A DNA stretch of 55,232 nt from a virus (taxonomy: Duplodnaviria > Caudoviricetes): IMG/VR virus record IMGVR_UViG_3300011440_000024, positions 1 to 55,232 of that record; one strand, written 5' to 3'. The notes beneath the pieces were generated by a model, which did no database searches, was not told where the DNA came from, and saw nothing but the letters and a program-made list of their open reading frames with translations. The position numbers and the translations under genes were made by a program. Positions within the stretch are counted from its first letter, which is position 1, and each line of letters opens with the position of its first letter. Of the stretch, positions 4,897 to 48,563 are shown piece by piece.

Positions 4897-6339
4897 ATGG
4901 CAAAGAAGAAAGATAACCGAAACAAACGCAATCTAGTAACTCGTATCTTTCAAGCTGCTCCCGATCCGCGAAAACGGTCAACCGGCACTTCTCTAAATGC
5001 AAGGGGAGCGGTGCCTGTTGATAGTTCAGCCACTAGTGAATTAGGCTCATCGCGTGGTGGAGTTACAAGAGACATTGTTCCTGCATTGGGTCAGGGAGCG
5101 CAAGCAATTCGCATCTATGACCAAATGTCTAACTCTCTTGCTAGTGTCGATGTTTCGCTTCGTGCGGGTAAGATGCCTATTATGGGTGCAATGTTCTTTA
5201 TCGAATCATACGATGATTCACAAGAGAACATTGACATCAAACAGTTCGTTGAATACAATCTTCTTAGAGGAACGGCAGCACCATTTCTTCTCGTACTAGA
5301 AGATATCCTTCGTATGTACGAATACGGTTATACCGTATTCGAGAAGGTATATGAGAATAGAGAATGGGCGCCTAAACGTGGTGGAGCTAATCGTCGTAAG
5401 TACACAATGCTAAAGAAGCTAGCTCCACGTCCTACTCCTACTATCAAGAAGATTAACTACGACGACAATGGTGGTCCCCTTAGTATCGTGCAATCTGCTG
5501 TCGATAGGAATAACAAAGTTAAAGATGTTGAGCTGGATATCTCTAAGCTCATCGTATTCAGCTTTAATAAAAAGGGCGGCAATCTAGAAGGTAAGTCGAT
5601 CCTTCGTACTGCATATCAGCATTGGTACTACGTTGATAACCTTTACAAGATTGATGGTATTCAGAAGGAACGTCATGGTATGGGATTCCCTGTACTTGAA
5701 CTTCCTCCTGGATTTAAAGATGCTGACAAACTTGCAGCAGAGTTGCTAGTTCAGAACATTCGTACTAACGAGCATGGCGGAATGGTTCTACCTCCTGGCT
5801 TTAAATTCCATTTCGCAGAATTGCCAGGGCAACCTGTTAACGTGATGGAATCTATCGACCATCATAACGGGATGATTATGCTTAACGTTATGGTTCAGTT
5901 CCTTATGATGGGTATTCAAGGTAGCGGTAGTGGTGGTAGAGCAACTGCTGGATCGCATCAGGATATGTTCACGAAGTCACTACGCTATGTAGGAAATCTC
6001 ATCTGCGATTGGATGAACTACTATCTCATTCCACAATTGGTTGCATATAACTTTGAAACTGACAAGTTCCCACGATTGCAGATCAAAAATATCGGTGAAA
6101 CGAAAGACTTGCAACAGTGGGGATCAGCAGTTGCAAACCTTGCTGCACAGAATCTTATCACTCTTGATTTGGAGACAGAACAGTGGGTTCGTTCTATTCT
6201 CGATGCGCCACCTAAAATGGGAGGTAAGCAAACTCCTGAAGCTAATGCAGGTAACGCAAGCGAGAAGAAGGGAGATATTGAATCAGGTGTTGGTGATGGA
6301 GGTAATGCAGGAGTTCCTACTGATGATGCGGATACATAA
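4897..6339 (+). CDS. Portal protein (Mu gp29/DUF935-like)
   Basis: Directly after TerL; GKSILRTAY, ERHGMGFP, LIPQLVAYNF motifs typical of DUF935 portals. Confidence 0.85.
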   Translation: MAKKKDNRNKRNLVTRIFQAAPDPRKRSTGTSLNARGAVPVDSSATSELGSSRGGVTRDIVPALGQGAQAIRIYDQMSNSLASVDVSLRAGKMPIMGAMFFIESYDDSQENIDIKQFVEYNLLRGTAAPFLLVLEDILRMYEYGYTVFEKVYENREWAPKRGGANRRKYTMLKKLAPRPTPTIKKINYDDNGGPLSIVQSAVDRNNKVKDVELDISKLIVFSFNKKGGNLEGKSILRTAYQHWYYVDNLYKIDGIQKERHGMGFPVLELPPGFKDADKLAAELLVQNIRTNEHGGMVLPPGFKFHFAELPGQPVNVMESIDHHNGMIMLNVMVQFLMMGIQGSGSGGRATAGSHQDMFTKSLRYVGNLICDWMNYYLIPQLVAYNFETDKFPRLQIKNIGETKDLQQWGSAVANLAAQNLITLDLETEQWVRSILDAPPKMGGKQTPEANAGNASEKKGDIESGVGDGGNAGVPTDDADT

Positions 6340-24045: not shown

Positions 24046-26481
24046 CTATATTGCTTCTCCCCATGATGGGCCGATTTGCATATCAGCTTTGAATGGTAGT
24101 TCCCAACCCAATGCATCTTTAGCTCTTGATTCCATAACCTGTTTACAGATCACTCCGTACTCATCGACGTAGTTATCTTCCACATCACCCAAGATGGAAT
24201 CGTGGACTGTGAGGACGATAACCGCCCTAGCTGAATCAATGTTATCTGCGATGATAATGGCAGATGTGAGTGTGAGGTCGTTAGCAGTTGTTTGAGGATA
24301 GAAGTTAATTCCCTCTCTATAGACCGCTGACTTATTGTAGTCCGTGAGAAGATGGAAACGTCGCTTCCGTCCAAATGGAGAAGTAAGTGTTCCCTTAGTG
24401 TGAATCTCTGTTTCGACAGCTTTTTCCCAGGTGCCAACACCAGTAAATGTTTTCCATACCCAGTCAATATACAGTTGTGCCTCCGACTCGGGGATATCAT
24501 GTTTCTCCTGGAATGTTGCTGCTGTCTGTCTAAAGAATACACCGAAGTTTACGTTCTTAGCAACGTCTCTATTATGCTTCGTGAAATCGGCACCATAAAA
24601 TCGTTCGGCACACTCGGAATGCAGGTCGCGTCCTTCTTGATAGATTGCCCATAGAAGAGGGTCGTGAGAAAATTCAGCAATGCAGCGAAGCTCTGCTTGC
24701 GAAAAGTCTGCATTGACAATACTTCTTCCGGGGCTAGCACGAAACAGAGTTCGGATATTAGGGATGCCCTCTTTTGGTCTTGTGATATTCTGAAGATTTG
24801 GCCTACGGCTTGATAGCCTCCCTGAGTTAGTTCCGAACAAGAGAAGGTCAGTATAAATTCTCCGTTCTTCGTCTGCTTCGGCATTGGCAATTAATCCAAT
24901 CAGATAGGTCGAAGCCTGTTTAGCGAGTTGCTGTGAACGATCATACAGTTCAACAAAACCTTTATAGTGTGCTTTTCTTTCTGCTAGATCAGGAGCTTCT
25001 TTAGCAGTAACCACATTACCCACACGCTCAGTAACAGTAGAACGTCTAACACTAAAACGATCAGCAAGAATTTCTTTTCTTGCCGAGTCATCGACACTGT
25101 TGTCTTTGTCGGGACGCTTTCGCATTTCATGGGTAATGCCCCAATCATCATAAAGGATAGCTGACATTTGTTTCGGAGAGTTAGGATTGAGTTCAGGCTT
25201 GTCAACCCATGTTCTCATCTTATCGGTTAGATCAACAAGTTCCGGCTTTACCTGAAATTCGTATAGATCAGCAGCACGATCCACGTCATAAGTGATACCG
25301 TGCAACTCAGCAGGAATAAGTAGATTATTAGTAGCTGGTATGAGAATCTCGTTGTAGAATCCCAGGACTCCATCAGCAGCGGCCATAGGATAATACAAGT
25401 CAAACAAAGACTTAGTGCCACCCACATCATTACCAGCATAAGTATAAAATTCATCATAATCTTCTACTACCCCTGTTTTCTTTGCTCTAGTAACAGCGGG
25501 AGGCGTGTAGTTGGGCCAACCGAATTCCTCCATGAGTAGATATTCAAGACCGTGAATTCCTATCGCGTCATCCCCACCCGATCTTTCATCCAACGCATAA
25601 GATAGGAGAATCGTGTCGTGATCGACTCTTGCTTTGATTCCATAGGTATGACGGAGGATTTTAGTATCGAACTTTCCATTGTGCCAGATAAAGCTATGAT
25701 GTTCTGATTCAAGTAAGGATCGTAAATGATCTCTAATGAAATTTTCGTCCTCAAACAATCCTTCACGCTCTCCGAGAACATAGGCGTGAGTTCCATCATA
25801 ACTGAATTGAATCGAAATAAGAGTCGCTCGGTGGGTGAGTCCTCCCCGAGATTCAATATCTGCCGCAATCTCTCCTGTCTTATTACTTCGTAGTTCGGCA
25901 ATGAGTTCGATTGCATCCTTCCTACTTTCGACAACTTCAATAGAAGGAAACGGAGCAGGTGGATTAGGATTAAACGCTCTCTTAAAGTCTTTCTTTAAGT
26001 TGGGGAAAACACTATCATCCCTGACGGCGAGTGCAGGATTATTGGTAGCAACAACTGTTCTGCCGTTTTGTTCGATACGATAACCTCGGTAACGATCAAT
26101 TGATCCTCGTCCACATATGAGATTAACTGCTTCCGATCCGGCGGCGATGACAAGACTAATACCGGATAGCTCTTTATGTAACCTTGGAGCGCACGCTTTA
26201 ATCGCAGCCGGCGGTACTTTGTTACCATCAGGTTCACATAGGACAACATTGGTAAGCATCACATCCTTACGAGTCAATCCATTACTCTTTAGAAGACTGT
26301 CGATAATGGCACGACTACCTTTAGGATTGGCAAATGGCTGCTTCGCCATAACATCATAACGTGCAGGTGATCGTGAAACTATGGCGGCTGTAGCCTGTGG
26401 CGGTTTTAGCGTGGGCGCATGCTTCTTCCGTTGAAGAGGACACTTCTCACATTCCGCTAATGGGTGCTTTCGCAAGGGCAT
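24046..26481 (-). CDS. Family A DNA polymerase with 3'-5' exonuclease and N-terminal UDG family-4-like domain
   Basis: CEKCPL...TNVVLC; exonuclease DIE, HNGKFD, YAGND; GRLSS, DFSQAELR, KNVNFG, VHDS. Confidence 0.92.
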   Translation of the reverse strand: MPLRKHPLAECEKCPLQRKKHAPTLKPPQATAAIVSRSPARYDVMAKQPFANPKGSRAIIDSLLKSNGLTRKDVMLTNVVLCEPDGNKVPPAAIKACAPRLHKELSGISLVIAAGSEAVNLICGRGSIDRYRGYRIEQNGRTVVATNNPALAVRDDSVFPNLKKDFKRAFNPNPPAPFPSIEVVESRKDAIELIAELRSNKTGEIAADIESRGGLTHRATLISIQFSYDGTHAYVLGEREGLFEDENFIRDHLRSLLESEHHSFIWHNGKFDTKILRHTYGIKARVDHDTILLSYALDERSGGDDAIGIHGLEYLLMEEFGWPNYTPPAVTRAKKTGVVEDYDEFYTYAGNDVGGTKSLFDLYYPMAAADGVLGFYNEILIPATNNLLIPAELHGITYDVDRAADLYEFQVKPELVDLTDKMRTWVDKPELNPNSPKQMSAILYDDWGITHEMRKRPDKDNSVDDSARKEILADRFSVRRSTVTERVGNVVTAKEAPDLAERKAHYKGFVELYDRSQQLAKQASTYLIGLIANAEADEERRIYTDLLLFGTNSGRLSSRRPNLQNITRPKEGIPNIRTLFRASPGRSIVNADFSQAELRCIAEFSHDPLLWAIYQEGRDLHSECAERFYGADFTKHNRDVAKNVNFGVFFRQTAATFQEKHDIPESEAQLYIDWVWKTFTGVGTWEKAVETEIHTKGTLTSPFGRKRRFHLLTDYNKSAVYREGINFYPQTTANDLTLTSAIIIADNIDSARAVIVLTVHDSILGDVEDNYVDEYGVICKQVMESRAKDALGWELPFKADMQIGPSWGEAI

Positions 26482-34680: not shown

Positions 34681-34709
34681 ACCCTATCACATCTGCTCTT
34701 AAAAGTCAA
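34681..34709 (-). promoter_or_regulatory. Sigma70-type promoter TTGACT-N17-TAGGGT
   Basis: Exact 17-nt spacer, TG before -10, intergenic. Confidence 0.65.
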
Positions 34710-34717
34710 GCACACTT

Positions 34718-35380
34718 CTACGTTTTTGTTTTAGCAACTTCCCCATGATATAGCTTTAAACTGTTTGGGAAGTATTCTATTCTAATTTCGTTCCAACGTT
34801 TCTCAGTGATCTGCTTCAATCTGTATCTATTGCGCCAACGTTCGTAACAACCGCCACAGCCGCGAGTAATGTTTGTCCGTGGAGTTCCACACTTATTACA
34901 TTTATCTAATCCACGTCCGTTGCGGCGTTCTGTCTGCCAGCGTATTCGTTCATCGGTACTGTATTCATTTTTTCGATGTATTGAAATAAGTTCAAGCATC
35001 ACTTTACGAAGACTATTCTTCTGGACATACTTACGTGTAGAACTTACGAAGACTTGCCGAATCTGATACAGAGATAGACCAGTACGAATAGATAGCTCTG
35101 TCATGCCAATACGGTTAACTGCTTCATTATAGTACGGACGTGCAATCCTGATATCAACGTAACCATGATGAGAGCCAGGCTTGGCACTTTTAACTTTATC
35201 CCAAGCATAACATAATCGACACCATGAAGTCAACTTACCAGTACGACGAACGTAATAGTATTTCTCTGTAGCAGGCAACCATTCAGGTTGTTCATGTGCT
35301 GAACCTGAACAGAGCTTATTCCATACACCGTCAATTAAATGGTAACGTCCTGATTTTAATTGTTGTTCGGAAGGAACCAC
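34718..35380 (-). CDS. Hypothetical Cys-containing DNA-binding protein
   Basis: CxxC pairs and possible HTH; basic. Confidence 0.5.
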   Translation of the reverse strand: MVPSEQQLKSGRYHLIDGVWNKLCSGSAHEQPEWLPATEKYYYVRRTGKLTSWCRLCYAWDKVKSAKPGSHHGYVDIRIARPYYNEAVNRIGMTELSIRTGLSLYQIRQVFVSSTRKYVQKNSLRKVMLELISIHRKNEYSTDERIRWQTERRNGRGLDKCNKCGTPRTNITRGCGGCYERWRNRYRLKQITEKRWNEIRIEYFPNSLKLYHGEVAKTKT

Positions 35381-37193: not shown

Positions 37194-37691
37194 TTATCCT
37201 CCCTTCTTGAGTTCTGACCGTACAACCATTAGCAATCTACCTAGATGATTCTCGCCAACCCAGGTGACATTACCATCACCATCAGTAACAGGTGAACAAC
37301 CCCAATATCTATCGTTCCATGAATTACCTTCGATAAGTTCTGCATCACCCGTTGCTTTAAGTAACCTACCAAAACTAGGAAGAGCAAACTTATATCGCAA
37401 ACCTGCCAACATCACGTCGTTCTTCACTTCTTCCCAATCGGTACGAAGGATTGTATTCTTACCGAGAGTCTTAGCATGACGACAGGTTCTAGCTTTAGAG
37501 ATTGTAACTGCATCTGTGAATCTAATAGCTTTGCTAGCCTGAAAGTAATGCTCAACAGTAGGAAACTTAAGTGAGTACTCATCTTCTGTATTAACAATTT
37601 CCACACCATAAGGTGCAGCTTGAAATAGGCTGCTACTAAAGTTTGAGAGAAACTTATATGCCCCTCGGAATGAGGTTATTTGTTGCGACAT
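37194..37691 (-). CDS. NADAR-family protein
   Basis: FLSNF, TVEHYFQA.K, DWE.VK..VM, LIEGN.W.D.YWG, GEN.LG.LLM. Confidence 0.92.
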   Translation of the reverse strand: MSQQITSFRGAYKFLSNFSSSLFQAAPYGVEIVNTEDEYSLKFPTVEHYFQASKAIRFTDAVTISKARTCRHAKTLGKNTILRTDWEEVKNDVMLAGLRYKFALPSFGRLLKATGDAELIEGNSWNDRYWGCSPVTDGDGNVTWVGENHLGRLLMVVRSELKKGG

Positions 37692-37701
37692 GCTACCCCC
37701 T

Positions 37702-38145
37702 TTATTTCAATGCTTGATTAATAGCACGATTAGGTGCCATGCCTCCATTAAGGAGCCGACGGTATTTATTACGAGCTTGCTTACACTTCAAGGTAATGGA
37801 ACAAAATAGTGATTCACCGGGAGTGCCACCCTTTATCGGACCTCCACAAACAACACACAAAGGTCTAACTGCATCAGCTACCATTACCCGCGCTTTGTTG
37901 AAACTCATGCCGGACAACATAAGGAACTCTATTACATCACCGTACTTCTTAAGCCACCGTTCCTCTTTGCAAGACCAGCATAACTTTCGTTGTGATTGTG
38001 GTGGTACTTCTATGCCACAGTCAATGCATAGTCCATTGCTTTTAGTACAAGCAACACACCAGCCACTCGATTCAACGAGTTTGCTAAGATCGCCACAACT
38101 AGGGCAAACATCTTCCTCTAGTGTATAATCTAAGCAGGCACTCAA
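37702..38145 (-). CDS. Cys-rich (multi-CxxC) Zn-binding protein
   Basis: Five CxxC motifs; TTG start. Confidence 0.55.
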   Translation of the reverse strand: MSACLDYTLEEDVCPSCGDLSKLVESSGWCVACTKSNGLCIDCGIEVPPQSQRKLCWSCKEERWLKKYGDVIEFLMLSGMSFNKARVMVADAVRPLCVVCGGPIKGGTPGESLFCSITLKCKQARNKYRRLLNGGMAPNRAINQALK

Positions 38146-38150
38146 CTACT

Positions 38151-38253
38151 AGGTCAGGGATACTCTAGGCATTTCAGGTAGCCGATATAATCGGGCCTGA
38201 CTATCCAATAGGCATCGTCACCGTATTACCCTCGTTACCTGATGCTACGACCT
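38151..38253 (-). ncRNA. Candidate structured RNA
   Basis: Closing AGGUC/GACCU stem, CCGAU-UAU-AUCGG hairpin, 14-bp partner at 39476-39489. Confidence 0.4.
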
Positions 38254-38258
38254 TAACA

Positions 38259-38384
38259 TGGGGGAGGGAATCGAACCCTATTATCCGTGGAGAACTTTGT
38301 GGCTTTCGCCTAACCACGCAAATACAACGGCCACTACTAACATATGCAGAGCTTAAGTACATATGCTTTCATTCCGTTCCCCCA
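38259..38384 (-). ncRNA. Candidate multi-stem RNA with tRNA-like T-loop
   Basis: UGGGGGA/UCCCCCA closing stem, 10-bp hairpin, GGC-GAAA-GCC tetraloop, GGG-UUCGAUU-CCC. Confidence 0.55.
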
Positions 38385-38402
38385 AGCTGTTGTTACTTCA
38401 GT

Positions 38403-38477
38403 TTACGCACCATCTTCTCCATCACCACTACCACCATCATCGGGTGCTGGCTCAGTAGGCTCATCTTCCCAACGCAT
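38403..38477 (-). CDS. 24-aa acidic micropeptide MRWEDEPTEPAPDDGGSGDGEDGA
   Basis: GGGGAGG RBS and TAATG coupling to the upstream gene. Confidence 0.45.
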   Translation of the reverse strand: MRWEDEPTEPAPDDGGSGDGEDGA

Positions 38478-38719
38478 TATAACCTCCCCTCCAATGCATA
38501 GTAGAGTCTTGATTTAGCAACTACATCTAATGCATCTGAGATATCTACTGTGCGCGGTAAGTTGTTCTGCCTACTTTGTATTCCCGAATCGGATTCATTT
38601 TCTTGCCATATTCTGTGATCGGATTCGGCTTTACCCACTGAGCTTGTGCTGTCGATGCTGTCATCAACACTACTAGTACGATCATCGCTAGAACGATCGT
38701 TGTAATTCTCATTGCTCAC
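38477..38719 (-). CDS. Ser/Asp-rich hypothetical protein
   Basis: AAGGGG RBS, GTG start. Confidence 0.5.
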   Translation of the reverse strand: MSNENYNDRSSDDRTSSVDDSIDSTSSVGKAESDHRIWQENESDSGIQSRQNNLPRTVDISDALDVVAKSRLYYALEGRL

Positions 38720-38731
38720 TTCATCCCCTTA

Positions 38732-39361
38732 TTAATATGGTTTGCAAGACCAGGGCGACCAATCTTTCCCTGATGCTACAAAGTATTCATACGCTGCTAC
38801 TGCTTGTTCGAGCGGCGTGTTACCATGTCCATATGTTGAACGTGCGAAGTTGCCCATCTGGAACATACCTAGATACTGTCCATTGTGTGCCCGGACACTA
38901 TAACTTGACCCTGATTCACAACGAGATACAGCAAGTGCCTGATCGCAGTAAGCTCCAAAGACGTGACAAATTGCCTCTCGTGGGTCTTGTAACTCAACGT
39001 ATGTTCTGAACGTATCATCTGCACGACCTGCCCACTTCTTTCCATTGAACTTAAGATAATGGCAACCGTGTGTTCTACGTTCTGCGTAACTTGTTCGTGT
39101 GCGGGGAACTAAAATCTTTTCTTGCCAACTCCATGTAGCAGTTCTTTTGGTACTAATATACTTCCTAGCACGATTGAGATTGCAAGTCTGCTTGTGACTA
39201 GACTTACTAAGCACTCTTGCATTTCTCTCTACAGCATTATCGTACTTACTTATGAGTACCGACTTGCTCTCCTGCGGTACTTGCTGTTGGCTAGTTGCCA
39301 CTGTTGCACCAACTAATACAAACGCAACAGTTATGGCTAGTATGGCAGCAACTCCCTTCAG
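38732..39361 (-). CDS. Secreted lysozyme-like lytic transglycosylase, probable CTG start
   Basis: RCESG, GMFQ, W.PW motifs; AGGAGG 8 nt before in-frame CTG 39361 gives signal peptide MKGVAAILAITVAFVLVG. Confidence 0.75.
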   Translation of the reverse strand: MKGVAAILAITVAFVLVGATVATSQQQVPQESKSVLISKYDNAVERNARVLSKSSHKQTCNLNRARKYISTKRTATWSWQEKILVPRTRTSYAERRTHGCHYLKFNGKKWAGRADDTFRTYVELQDPREAICHVFGAYCDQALAVSRCESGSSYSVRAHNGQYLGMFQMGNFARSTYGHGNTPLEQAVAAYEYFVASGKDWSPWSCKPY

Positions 39362-39790
39362 GACTTGTACCTCCTAGTAGATTACAGAATTGTGCCTCCT
39401 AATCCCCTTCGGTTGTAACTCGGCACCCAAGCCTTACCAACGCTAGTGTGATTTGCAACCATCACTAGTGGACTAGGTAATACGATGACCTCTGCAAAAG
39501 TCTCGTACCCTCTGGGGTCATTACGTTGCAGCGCACCCCATATATTGTGGAGTTAACGGAGGGGGGTCATATTGTGGTTATTAACCTATGCGTTGGGAAG
39601 CGCAACAATATGAACGGGGCGTTAACTCCACACTTAAGCTACTACGAATAGTAGCAATCTTTATACCTGCTTAGATTATCAAAGTACGGAAGTGCAGAAT
39701 AATGAGAATGGAGAAGCTACTAAGTTACGGCTTGTGCGGTAACTGTTCACTTCTCCATCTCAGAGTAACTACGTGGGGGTAGCAACTCAT
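39362..39790 (-). ncRNA. Hairpin-chain leader / sRNA cluster with segments antisense to downstream start sites
   Basis: No long ORF; five or more stem-loops; inverted matches of 10-14 nt to downstream translation-start regions; promoter immediately upstream. Confidence 0.65.
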
Positions 39791-39796
39791 TGCTGG

Positions 39797-39825
39797 ACAC
39801 TAGCAGAAAACTACTGTTGTGTCAA
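39797..39825 (-). promoter_or_regulatory. Sigma70-type promoter TTGACA-N17-TAGTGT driving the RNA locus
   Basis: Perfect -35, 17-nt spacer, TG extension. Confidence 0.7.
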
Positions 39826-40038
39826 GCCCCCAACTGCACTATCTGATAGTTCTTCCATACTTAGGAGAATCCCGAAGTTGGCATAAATTAGCCAGATAAA
39901 CATATGGTCAACGAAGTCCTGCTCACTTAGGAAGTAAGCAGTAAATTCAATTGGCATATGATACTTGACATTCCAACTGTTGTATGTATGGAAGTTCTCC
40001 ATACTAAACGTCATCATATTGAAGGGTGTACTTCTCAT
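39811..40038 (-). CDS. Hypothetical protein
   Basis: ORF only; weak RBS. Confidence 0.3.
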   Translation of the reverse strand: MRSTPFNMMTFSMENFHTYNSWNVKYHMPIEFTAYFLSEQDFVDHMFIWLIYANFGILLSMEELSDSAVGGLTQQ

Positions 40039-40049
40039 ATGACGTTTAG

Positions 40050-40092
40050 TATAGAGGGGGCAGCTACGTTACTGGTAACTACCCCACTCCAT
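40050..40092 (-). terminator. GC-rich hairpin after 40105..40446 (terminator or processing stem)
   Basis: GGAGUGGGGUAGUUAC / GUAGCUGCCCCCUCU stem; no clear U tract. Confidence 0.35.
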
Positions 40093-40104
40093 ACAGTTAC
40101 TTAC

Positions 40105-40446
40105 TTAACCTGTAACCGCCTGATTGACGATATACACGTTACCCTTCTTGCTGGACACCTTAAGCTGCTTGAACTCTTCAGGCGCATCGTCAGCCTTACG
40201 AGCATTCTCAAATCCCGTCTTGACTGTAGATGCCTTACGTCCCTCAAAGTGTCCCTTATCCGTAGGAATCCTAGCTGCACGAACTCCGTTATCAACGATC
40301 TGCTGAAGGATAGACTTATACTCACCCTTCGACCTAACGGAACTAAGTGCCTCACCAATCTCTTCATCACTAAGCGGCTCGAACATTAGATCAGTCATAT
40401 TCTCTCCTGTGGTTTGTGTGTTTTGTGTATTACGTGGTCTTGCCAT
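40105..40446 (-). CDS. Hypothetical protein, paralog of 47777..48175; second in-frame start at 40398
   Basis: LMFEP...KGE...F.G pattern shared. Confidence 0.6.
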   Translation of the reverse strand: MARPRNTQNTQTTGENMTDLMFEPLSDEEIGEALSSVRSKGEYKSILQQIVDNGVRAARIPTDKGHFEGRKASTVKTGFENARKADDAPEEFKQLKVSSKKGNVYIVNQAVTG

Positions 40447-40449
40447 AAT

Positions 40450-40917
40450 TTATGTGCTACCCCCTTTCTCCTTCTCTAGTCTTACTAGACGTTCTTCGTG
40501 ATTTACTACAACTGCTTTGATATCTAATCCCTTTAACCTCCCTTCTAGATTAGTAATCCTTTGCTCTAACTCATCGAGAGGAATCGTAGCAGGTTTCGCA
40601 CCACCTGTCAAGGTCTTATCACCTTTGACATAGCGTGCGTCGTATGCGTCCTCAGTGGGAGCACCATGCAGGCGATACCGTGTAGGTCTGCCGCGTGCCC
40701 CTCTGTCGATGAGTTCTATGCAACCAAGTTCCTTAAGAGCATTGAATAATACAGTATAGTGAGCCATAGATATACCAAGTGAATGGAATGTAGTAACTAC
40801 CTTACCTTCGTATGTCGTGGTACTCTTGGCACCTTTCTTCTTGATGACAGTAGACTCTTTCTCCATAGCTTCGTATAGCTGGAGGAGATAGCTAAACTTT
40901 CTAGCTTCAGGTGGCAT
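40450..40917 (-). CDS. Winged-helix DNA-binding protein with C-terminal coiled coil
   Basis: LKELGCIE...GRPTRYRL wing; leucine-zipper end. Confidence 0.55.
   Translation of the reverse strand: MPPEARKFSYLLQLYEAMEKESTVIKKKGAKSTTTYEGKVVTTFHSLGISMAHYTVLFNALKELGCIELIDRGARGRPTRYRLHGAPTEDAYDARYVKGDKTLTGGAKPATIPLDELEQRITNLEGRLKGLDIKAVVVNHEERLVRLEKEKGGST
40583..40611 (-). promoter_or_regulatory. Sigma70-type promoter TTGACA-N17-TACGAT (intragenic)
   Basis: Near-consensus with TG extension. Confidence 0.6.
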
Positions 40918-41296
40918 TAGTAGTTCCCGATGCTACATCAGAAGAAAATGTCAATGGTGGTTGCTCCTTATCTCGACATTCAATGTCTGCTTCAGCTATG
41001 TAGCAATCACGACATACAGTGTATGGATGAATTAGATAAGTCATACGGTTCGGATACTTCTGAGTACGCCAATGCTTTGCATCCTCAGAAGATTCACAAA
41101 CCAACTGTTGTACTTCATCGTGCATTGGAACAGTACAAAAACCCATGACATGAGGAAGTCTGAACCATCCTGTCTGTGTCCTATCTGTATCATCATACTT
41201 GTTCTTCTTACCTCTAGTTGACGGAGCAGCAGTAAGTTCCTTCTTCAACTCATCTTCAGTAATTTCCTCAAAGGCAAAAGGCTCAGTCATGGTCAT
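40907..41296 (-). CDS. Hypothetical protein with FAFEEITEDEL N-terminal motif
   Basis: ORF; Cys/His cluster; start at 41296 or 41290. Confidence 0.55.
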   Translation of the reverse strand: MTMTEPFAFEEITEDELKKELTAAPSTRGKKNKYDDTDRTQTGWFRLPHVMGFCTVPMHDEVQQLVCESSEDAKHWRTQKYPNRMTYLIHPYTVCRDCYIAEADIECRDKEQPPLTFSSDVASGTTNAT

Positions 41297-43302: not shown

Positions 43303-43349
43303 CGGCTACCCCCTGTAGATACTGAAGTCTTTAGAACAGATTACATTCC

Positions 43350-43378
43350 ATCCTAGCACAAATCGCAGCGTAAGTCAA
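43350..43378 (-). promoter_or_regulatory. Sigma70-type promoter TTGACT-N17-TAGGAT
   Basis: 17-nt spacer, TG extension, intergenic. Confidence 0.7.
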
Positions 43379-48534: not shown

Positions 48535-48563
48535 AGAGTACCATCTTTCGCTCGTTGTGTCAA
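48535..48563 (-). promoter_or_regulatory. Sigma70-type promoter TTGACA-N17-TACTCT
   Basis: Perfect -35, 17-nt spacer, TG extension. Confidence 0.65.

Follow-up and report, generated by a model that had tools for sequence, protein, structure and literature searches.

A rod-shaped RNA hairpin of 87 nt (39546-39632, minus strand) lies in the putative leader of an early phage operon, and comparison with related phages indicates that a conserved hairpin with exposed C-rich stretches is real at this place. The DNA analysed is a complete virus record of 55,232 bases (the window), whose phage we call W. In W, the rod carries three collinear blocks antisense to the ribosome-binding region of a micropeptide gene, MRWE. 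The rod and this three-block complementarity are both far beyond chance, and calculated energies indicate that pairing between the rod and the MRWE start is thermodynamically favourable in W. We tentatively favour, at somewhat below an even chance, a reading in which the rod is an anti-Shine-Dalgarno leader module with a logic like that of P1 c4 and P4 CI, and in which the extended match can occlude the MRWE start.

Genomic setting of the leader

Relatives of W were sought in viral, metagenome and genome contig collections. We found L006 (complete, 54,264 bases) and the 12-kb fragment L007, whose near-twin is L011, both syntenic with W at about 75% DNA identity, as well as the partial L012 and the distant L002/L004/L023/L024, L003, L005 and L025. 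The last of these has 35% identity in its homologue of a 147-aa protein of W, and its promoter-like site, leader and CUG-start SLT gene are arranged as described below for W. The genome contigs scanned yielded no relative, and GenBank phages gave no DNA match to the window.

The plus strand of W carries the structural genes, and its minus strand, from about 23 to 49.6 kb, forms a replication/early block that includes a family A DNA polymerase, a primase-helicase, a PD-(D/E)XK nuclease and a SNF2-type helicase. In the polymerase (24046-26481, minus), the exonuclease and polymerase domains are preceded by a fused domain of the uracil-DNA-glycosylase superfamily at the N-terminus (Pfam UDG, E 1.6e-14). 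The rod sits in the largest non-coding gap of this block, with a conserved 75-codon gene (39811-40038) upstream and an SLT (lysozyme-like) gene (38732-39361, minus; Pfam SLT_3, E 0.00095, below the curated cut-off) downstream. The start codon of the 75-codon gene is flanked by an 18-nt inverted repeat (39997-40014 and 40039-40056, minus), which is kept in all three close phages, 94% complementary in W and perfect over 18-19 bp in L006 and L007. The SLT gene probably starts at a conserved CUG (39361), 3' of AGGAGG at 39370-39375, and this AGGAGG-N7-8-CUG context (39359-39375 in W, minus) is kept in L006, L007 and L025, with the CUG start at 5318, 2449 and 4326. Such a start would give the SLT protein a hydrophobic N-terminal segment, which ATG/GTG/TTG ORF calling misses.

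Downstream of the SLT gene come, in order, a membrane peptide overlapping an 80-codon ORF, MRWE, a tRNA-like stretch, the 147-aa protein, which is zinc-finger-like, and a NADAR protein. The overlapping frames (38477-38719, minus), a 55-codon membrane-type peptide (38545-38712) and the 80-codon ORF, are both kept in L006; the C-terminus of the longer one, ..DVVAK.RLYYALEGR, is retained. They could represent a frameshift product or two nested genes, and in L007 the module follows the rod directly, not the SLT gene. The tRNA-like element between the MRWE and 147-aa genes (38240-38390 in W, minus; 6290-6377 in L006; 3152-3227 in L007) has a GGTTCGATTCC-type T-arm and a 6-7-bp acceptor-like stem in all three phages. 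ARAGORN called no tRNA at this element; Rfam offered only a tRNA-Sec match for L007 (22 bits, E 1.5) and, for the window, weak matches to Tymo_tRNA-like and the tmRNA T-arm. The element may be an aberrant tRNA or serve as a signal for processing.

A promoter-like site upstream of the rod (39797-39825, minus) was recognized from a motif family and by alignment. It consists of TTGACA (39820-39825), a 17-nt spacer and TG-n-TAGTGT (39797-39805), and it overlaps the end of the 75-codon gene. The motif TTGAC-N14-16-TGnTAnnnT matches the window six times, always on the minus strand within the early block, against 0.53 matches expected, and none of 100 shuffles reached six. The family is of the extended -10 type (34681-34709, 35204-35233, 39797-39825, 40583-40611, 43350-43378 and 48535-48563, all minus), and similar sites also occur in L006, L007, L002 and L025. 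Across the five phage leaders that could be aligned, CTTGAC..TTTTnTGnTA is invariant. The leader promoter escaped a standard sigma-70 scan, since only three of the six positions of its -10 element match. We infer a transcription start near 39790, and the promoter-like site would therefore place the rod about 160 nt into a gene-sense leader of about 430 nt. This structured leader would be transcribed in the minus sense from the 39797-39825 site towards the block of SLT, TM-peptide, MRWE, 147-aa and NADAR genes. The rod and the MRWE gene lie on the same strand, with the promoter-like site upstream and no terminator-like site between them.

The rod and its conservation

In the minus-sense fold, the rod is closed by a 13-bp stem (39620-39632 with 39546-39558); both sequence reading and an inverted-match search show that TGTGGAGTTAACG, at 39546-39558, is complemented exactly by 39620-39632. 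Next come a bubble of unpaired CCCCGU (39614-39619) and CCCCCCUC (39559-39566), a 9-bp inner stem (39605-39613 with 39567-39575) and two apical hairpins, A (UGCG-CUUCCCAA-CGCA, 39589-39604) and B (GGUU-AAU-AACC, 39576-39586). Across the 6/8-nt bubble, the two helices amount to about two helical turns. The original prediction had described this stem, bubble, inner stem and pair of apical hairpins; the coordinates that it gives are exact, and the fold bears it out: the minimum free energy is -31.3 kcal/mol (z = -6.99), none of 200 shuffles folds as well, and the rod forms an independent domain when the whole leader is folded. The plus-sense sequence reaches -36.8 kcal/mol (z = -6.25), again with none of 200 shuffles as good.

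On the sense strand, the terminator scan found no terminator-like site in 38000-40600, including the interval between the rod and the SLT gene, and a discrete small RNA is therefore not indicated. The sense sequence after the rod stem is AAUAUAUGGGG, and the scan result rules out the rod as an intrinsic terminator. We also considered a repeated, MITE-like mobile mini-element. The 12-nt stem arm has six matches in the genome with at most two mismatches, against 4.67 expected, and its only exact matches are the two arms; the stem sequence thus occurs once, which rules this candidate out. Rfam gave only sub-threshold, chance-level matches for 37500-41000 (E up to 10) and for L006 and L007 (E up to 5).

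The closing helix is homologous in W, L006 and L007. It is formed by TGTGGAGTTAATGGT and ACCATTAACTCCACA round a different 75-nt interior in L006, and by GTGGGGTTAG and CTAACCCCAC round 55 nt in L007. In the three-sequence alignment, 35 of 36 cells are paired and 3 of 12 pairs are compensatory; the covariation score was matched by 32 of 500 column shuffles and is thin, because there are only three full relatives. Contigs from four DNA runs are identical to the window at the rod and at its MRWE target wherever they cover them, so no micro-covariation can be read from them; the one divergent contig spans only about 39665-39790. L025 has a rod of 96 nt in the same place, with the bubble CCCCCCUCCCCUCC and an apical loop CCCCCA, and the more distant L002 leader holds three hairpins with C/U-rich loops. 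In L012, the leader ends in ACTATAACG-CCCCCC-GTTATAGT (1097-1119, where the contig stops), perhaps the rod in a minimal, C-loop form.

The strand and the exposed C-rich stretches of the original prediction also hold up. The minus sense is the gene-sense strand downstream of a conserved promoter-like site, and its z-score is the more extreme in all four rods (sense/antisense -6.99/-6.25, -7.64/-5.46, -6.01/-3.20 and -6.12/-3.05). Sense-strand G.U pairs occur in the inner stem of L006, in the closing-stem extension of L007 and in a neighbouring hairpin, H2 (39705-39761, minus), which covaries with double changes in 8 of 23 predicted leader-alignment pairs. C-runs are 3.5 times denser in the W leader than in the sense gene block (11.7 vs 3.3 per kb). 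Of the C-run nucleotides in this leader, 14 of 22 are unpaired, compared with 35% of the leader overall, and the three C-runs within the rod are all unpaired. The tendency is also seen in L007 and L002 but not in L006, where 9 of 33 C-run nucleotides are unpaired. Unpaired CCUCC-type stretches recur in the rods of W, L006, L007 and L025. Taken together, the rod, strand and C-run comparisons indicate that what is conserved is a sense-strand RNA rod exposing CCUCC-type single strands.

Antisense segments of the leader and their possible readings

The three antisense blocks of W fall in the loops and the bubble of the rod. Block 1, CUUCCCAACGCAU (39588-39600, minus), is an exact 13-nt inverted match to 38465-38477 and covers the 8-nt loop and 3' arm of apical hairpin A plus one junction nucleotide. 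Block 2, AUAACC (39576-39581, minus; GGTTAT on the plus strand), complements 38479-38484 within the predicted dimer; in apical hairpin B it occupies the 3' arm and some of the loop. Block 3, CCCCUCC (39558-39564, minus; GGAGGGG on the plus strand), is complementary by sequence to 38486-38492; it lies on the 3' side within the bubble, has CCUCC as its anti-Shine-Dalgarno core and is unpaired in both the rod and the whole-leader folds. The blocks are collinear with their target and each is perfect (13/13, 6/6 and 7/7), and the minimum-free-energy fold leaves 16 of their 26 nucleotides unpaired.

Their candidate target, GGAGGGG-A-GGUUAU-A-AUGCGUUGGGAAG (38465-38492, minus), spans the ribosome-binding region and first four codons of MRWE. 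This 24-codon gene (38403-38477, minus) begins with an AUG that overlaps by one base the UAA stop of the 80-codon ORF (38477-38719). Its short acidic ORF is kept in the three close phages (24 codons in W, 28 in L006 and 27 in L007), with indel lengths that are multiples of three, a pattern by which the micropeptide gene is judged real. When the rod interior was compared with 36-nt windows over 14 kb of sense strand, the MRWE start was the top duplex partner, ranking 1 of 2308 (-43.5 vs a mean of -13.3, sd 4.1). The dimer gains -15.8 kcal/mol after the cost of unfolding, a value reached by none of 100 shuffled targets.

This extended match is not shared by the relatives. In L007, the MRWE start ranks 2 of 2011 (duplex -32.2) through short collinear pieces, CCCAA, CAUU and CCUCCC, and in L006 it ranks 21 of 2304 (-26.9) through what is essentially CCUCCCC plus GCAU; in both, the dimer gain after unfolding is 0. 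The MRWE start region is almost identical across the three phages, so it is the guide side that varies and not the target side. The original prediction had staked itself on complementarity being kept in close relatives that retain both elements. Predicted antisense pairing with the MRWE ribosome-binding region stands for W (ddG -15.8) but is lost in L006 and L007 (ddG 0), and as a family property it fails. The covariation in homologs that the prediction had also called for is seen in the closing helix, at the 3 of 12 compensated pairs given above, but not between guide and target. Judged from the relatives at hand, the extended MRWE match is confined to W, statistically strong and lineage-specific, and not a property of the family. 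The MRWE gene is absent from L025, which has a rod. For the L006 rod, we found no alternative sense-strand target of at least 12 nt in the whole 54-kb genome; the longest complement, 11 nt, is by our estimate at about chance level. Whole-leader folds of W, L006 and L007 predict no pairing in cis between the C-rich stretch of the rod and the SLT ribosome-binding site, and in L025 that site ranks 414 of 1710 as a rod partner.

Other parts of the leader are antisense to starts of genes as well. Block B, AUAAUCUAAGCAGG (39666-39679, minus), matches codons 3-7 (38125-38138) of the 147-aa gene exactly, in antisense, over 14 nt. The match is 12 nt in L006 and has one mismatch and one wobble in L007, where the duplex extends through the gene's own codons 8-9; an A/G difference between L011 and L007 stands opposite a U and so pairs either way. 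Predicted ddG values are -17.0 kcal/mol for W, -8.8 for L006 and -23.8 for L007, and in each case none of 100 shuffles did as well. The first 21 nt of the 147-aa gene (38125-38145, minus; UUG start), in which the block B partner lies, are identical in the three phages, synonymous positions included; third-position identity over the gene is 0.56 (W vs L006).

At the predicted 5' end of the leader, the consensus fold forms a hairpin with a C-rich loop, H1 (GCUAC-CCCCAC-GUAGU, 39763-39788, minus). Its 5' half, UGCUACCCCC, is complementary to a ribosome-binding motif, GGGGGUAGCA, of three minus-strand genes (37691-37700, 40455-40464 and, with one mismatch, 43304-43313). A ribosome-binding motif GGGGGTAGCA precedes the 113-aa, NADAR and 142-aa genes, and the sense RNA carries its exact complement in the loop and 5' arm of H1 (39775-39784, plus-strand numbering). 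All five aligned phages have a C-rich-loop hairpin at this position, and UGCUACCCCC is kept in W, L006, L007 and L012. In L002 the hairpin reads GUUAC-CUCCCAAAC-GUAAC, and we found no long antisense match between that leader and downstream genes (maximum 9 nt). When the W leader was shuffled 300 times, a second exact match of at least 12 nt never arose; the window itself contains two, of 14 and 13 nt. Block B, H1 and the shuffled leaders together raise the prior for a leader that works by base pairing. One further pattern, the collinear order of leader and downstream matches (39588, 39632, 39666 and 39775 against 38477, 38358, 38138 and 37700), was dropped as evidence, because it takes in four of seven matches of at least 9 nt and was judged not beyond random order.

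In the anti-Shine-Dalgarno module that we favour, the rod would be one domain of the leader, and its long closing helix would keep the C-rich, CCUCC-containing single strands open. W would have gained, or kept, a display extended to 26 nt in three blocks, and these would pair with the ribosome-binding site and first codons of MRWE, 1.1 kb downstream. Pairing would nucleate at the exposed CUUCCCAA loop and the C-rich bubble, with UUGGGAAG as the partner on the target side, and the resulting duplex would block 30S binding and turn MRWE translation off. The rod may act in cis on its own transcript, or in trans if the stable hairpin outlives the mRNA or is cut from it. An intramolecular contact over 1.1 kb is unusual and counts against this reading. 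A wider version, in which the leader is a multi-guide RNA directed at distal cistrons of its own transcript (H1 at the GGGGGUAGCA sites, block B at the 147-aa gene and the rod at MRWE), with rod loops rewritten in each lineage so that related phages silence different genes on one scaffold, seems to us fairly unlikely.

The rod may instead be a leader element that matters only for its structure, whether as a processing or stability signal (a T7-type site for a double-strand-specific RNase) or for antitermination or protein binding, with an MRWE match that has no regulatory role. We regard this as possible, if on balance unlikely. Relatives keep the helix and general shape and not the guide-like sequence, the 13-bp and 9-bp helices stacked across the bubble span about two helical turns, the rod stands among several other covarying hairpins in a promoter-proximal leader, and net target pairing is not predicted in L006 or L007. 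What such a role leaves unexplained is the 26-nt three-block match on a start region at rank 1 of 2308, the recurrence of unpaired CCUCC-type stretches in all rods, and the second leader block antisense to another start in all three phages. The unpaired C-rich loop motifs in several leader hairpins of W, L007, L002 and L025 would equally suit a trans-acting small RNA of the RsaE, RNAIII or LhrC type, aimed at Shine-Dalgarno sites of the host or of other phages, with MRWE as one lineage-specific target; the predicted 5'-terminal hairpin is a trait that PMC2790875 describes in stable Gram-positive small RNAs. However, the sense strand lacks a terminator-like site between the rod and the SLT gene, no Rfam family is matched, and the genome contigs hold no relative that would identify a host, and we consider this reading improbable.

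Two further readings look to the DNA. That the plus strand of the rod derives from the MRWE start, as an inverted partial duplication now decayed or as a conversion patch, and that the complementarity has no function, appears quite improbable. The long match is private to W, its three blocks are each perfect as in a recent copy, the rod plus strand opens a 28-codon ORF beginning MRWE, and gene order in the region is rearranged between phages. Yet the blocks are separated by inserts that form hairpin arms and fall in loops and bubble, the L007 interior has a weaker collinear version (rank 2 of 2011) that suggests an older relationship, and the plus-strand MRWE ORF is not kept in L006 or L007. 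Very improbable, in our view, is a rod that acts as DNA (a cruciform, a protein-binding palindrome, or a replication or priming signal) or as a plus-strand RNA mimicking the start region. The closing arms do form a perfect palindrome, and the plus strand folds well in W (z = -6.25) and is followed by a terminator-like hairpin at 39638-39655. Against this, the sense G.U pairs become A.C mismatches on the opposite strand, z-scores favour the sense strand in four of four rods, the stem sequence is present once in the genome, neither the L006 nor the L007 sequence shows the terminator-like tail of the plus strand, and the replication genes are about 9 kb away.

If the pairing is real, a lytic-type environmental phage would use antisense segments of its own leader to time or limit the translation of internal cistrons, including a 24-codon micropeptide, and the rod would be a natural scaffold, compact in form, whose loops and bubble display split guides. 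If it is not, the region is still a structured leader that is well conserved and has a clear promoter family.

Comparison with known systems

The RNase III processing hairpins of phage T7 consist of a lower stem, an internal loop and an upper stem, and extend over about two helix turns with the internal loop. The W rod resembles them as an intergenic lower stem, loop and upper stem in a polycistronic phage transcript, and its predicted fold likewise comes to about two helix turns with an internal loop; cleavage would be hypothetical. It differs at the apex, a three-way junction with two small hairpins, and in a bubble that is conserved as C-rich. In early read-through transcripts of phage T4 (genes e and soc), a start region is silenced by pairing with a segment upstream on the mRNA, and a promoter within the structure lifts this block. 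The proposal for W is similar in that an upstream segment of one mRNA would pair with a downstream start. However, the T4 partners lie within tens of nucleotides and those of W are 1.1-1.5 kb apart, and none of the six promoter-motif matches of W falls in 38146-39796.

In logic, the nearest known systems are P1/P7 c4 and P4 CI, which are placed in the Rfam C4 family. RNAs of this family are released from the primary transcript by RNase P processing, a step that would be hypothetical for the rod. In P1 and P7, c4, icd and ant1/2 share one operon, as PMC8198154 describes it. According to PMC4825925, processing of an untranslated transcript yields the P4 CI RNA, which base-pairs with two sites of that transcript, seqA and seqC. 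The likeness to the rod lies in a phage-encoded structured RNA upstream of its target in one transcription unit (putative in W), in short, separate complementary segments carried on a stem-loop scaffold, and in a target that includes the ribosome-binding region of a small ORF preceding further genes. Separate loop segments facing a ribosome-binding region are found in W, but not in L006 or L007 once folding costs are counted. In contrast to c4 and CI, the rod has no Rfam C4 model match (E limits of 10 for 37500-41000 and of 5 for L006 and L007), its target is 1.1 kb away and not nearby, it shows no sign of an immunity or lysogeny context, and relatives show no co-variation of guide with target, the target staying as it is where the guide decays.

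In chemistry, RsaE and RNAIII come nearest: their unpaired UCCC motifs bind Shine-Dalgarno sites, as described in PMC2790875 and PMC2837412. The leader resembles RsaE/RoxS, the RNAIII hairpins and LhrC of low-GC Gram-positive bacteria in its unpaired C-rich, Shine-Dalgarno-complementary motifs, their several copies and a 5' hairpin, as far as those two accounts go. A conserved unpaired C-rich motif is present in the rods of W, L006, L007 and L025, more weakly in L006, and a discrete transcript with its own terminator is not seen. Small RNAs of the RsaE type bind Shine-Dalgarno regions and thereby block initiation complexes; for the rod, such binding is a prediction from calculated energies. 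The rod differs from such RNAs in lying inside a long operon leader with no terminator-like end, in being phage-borne and in having no Rfam match, and the W match is much longer (26 nt), reaching into the coding region. Membership in the c4/CI family or in the UCCC small-RNA family is not supported; if the pairing is real, W would combine the logic of P1 c4 and P4 CI with the C-rich anti-Shine-Dalgarno chemistry of Gram-positive small RNAs.
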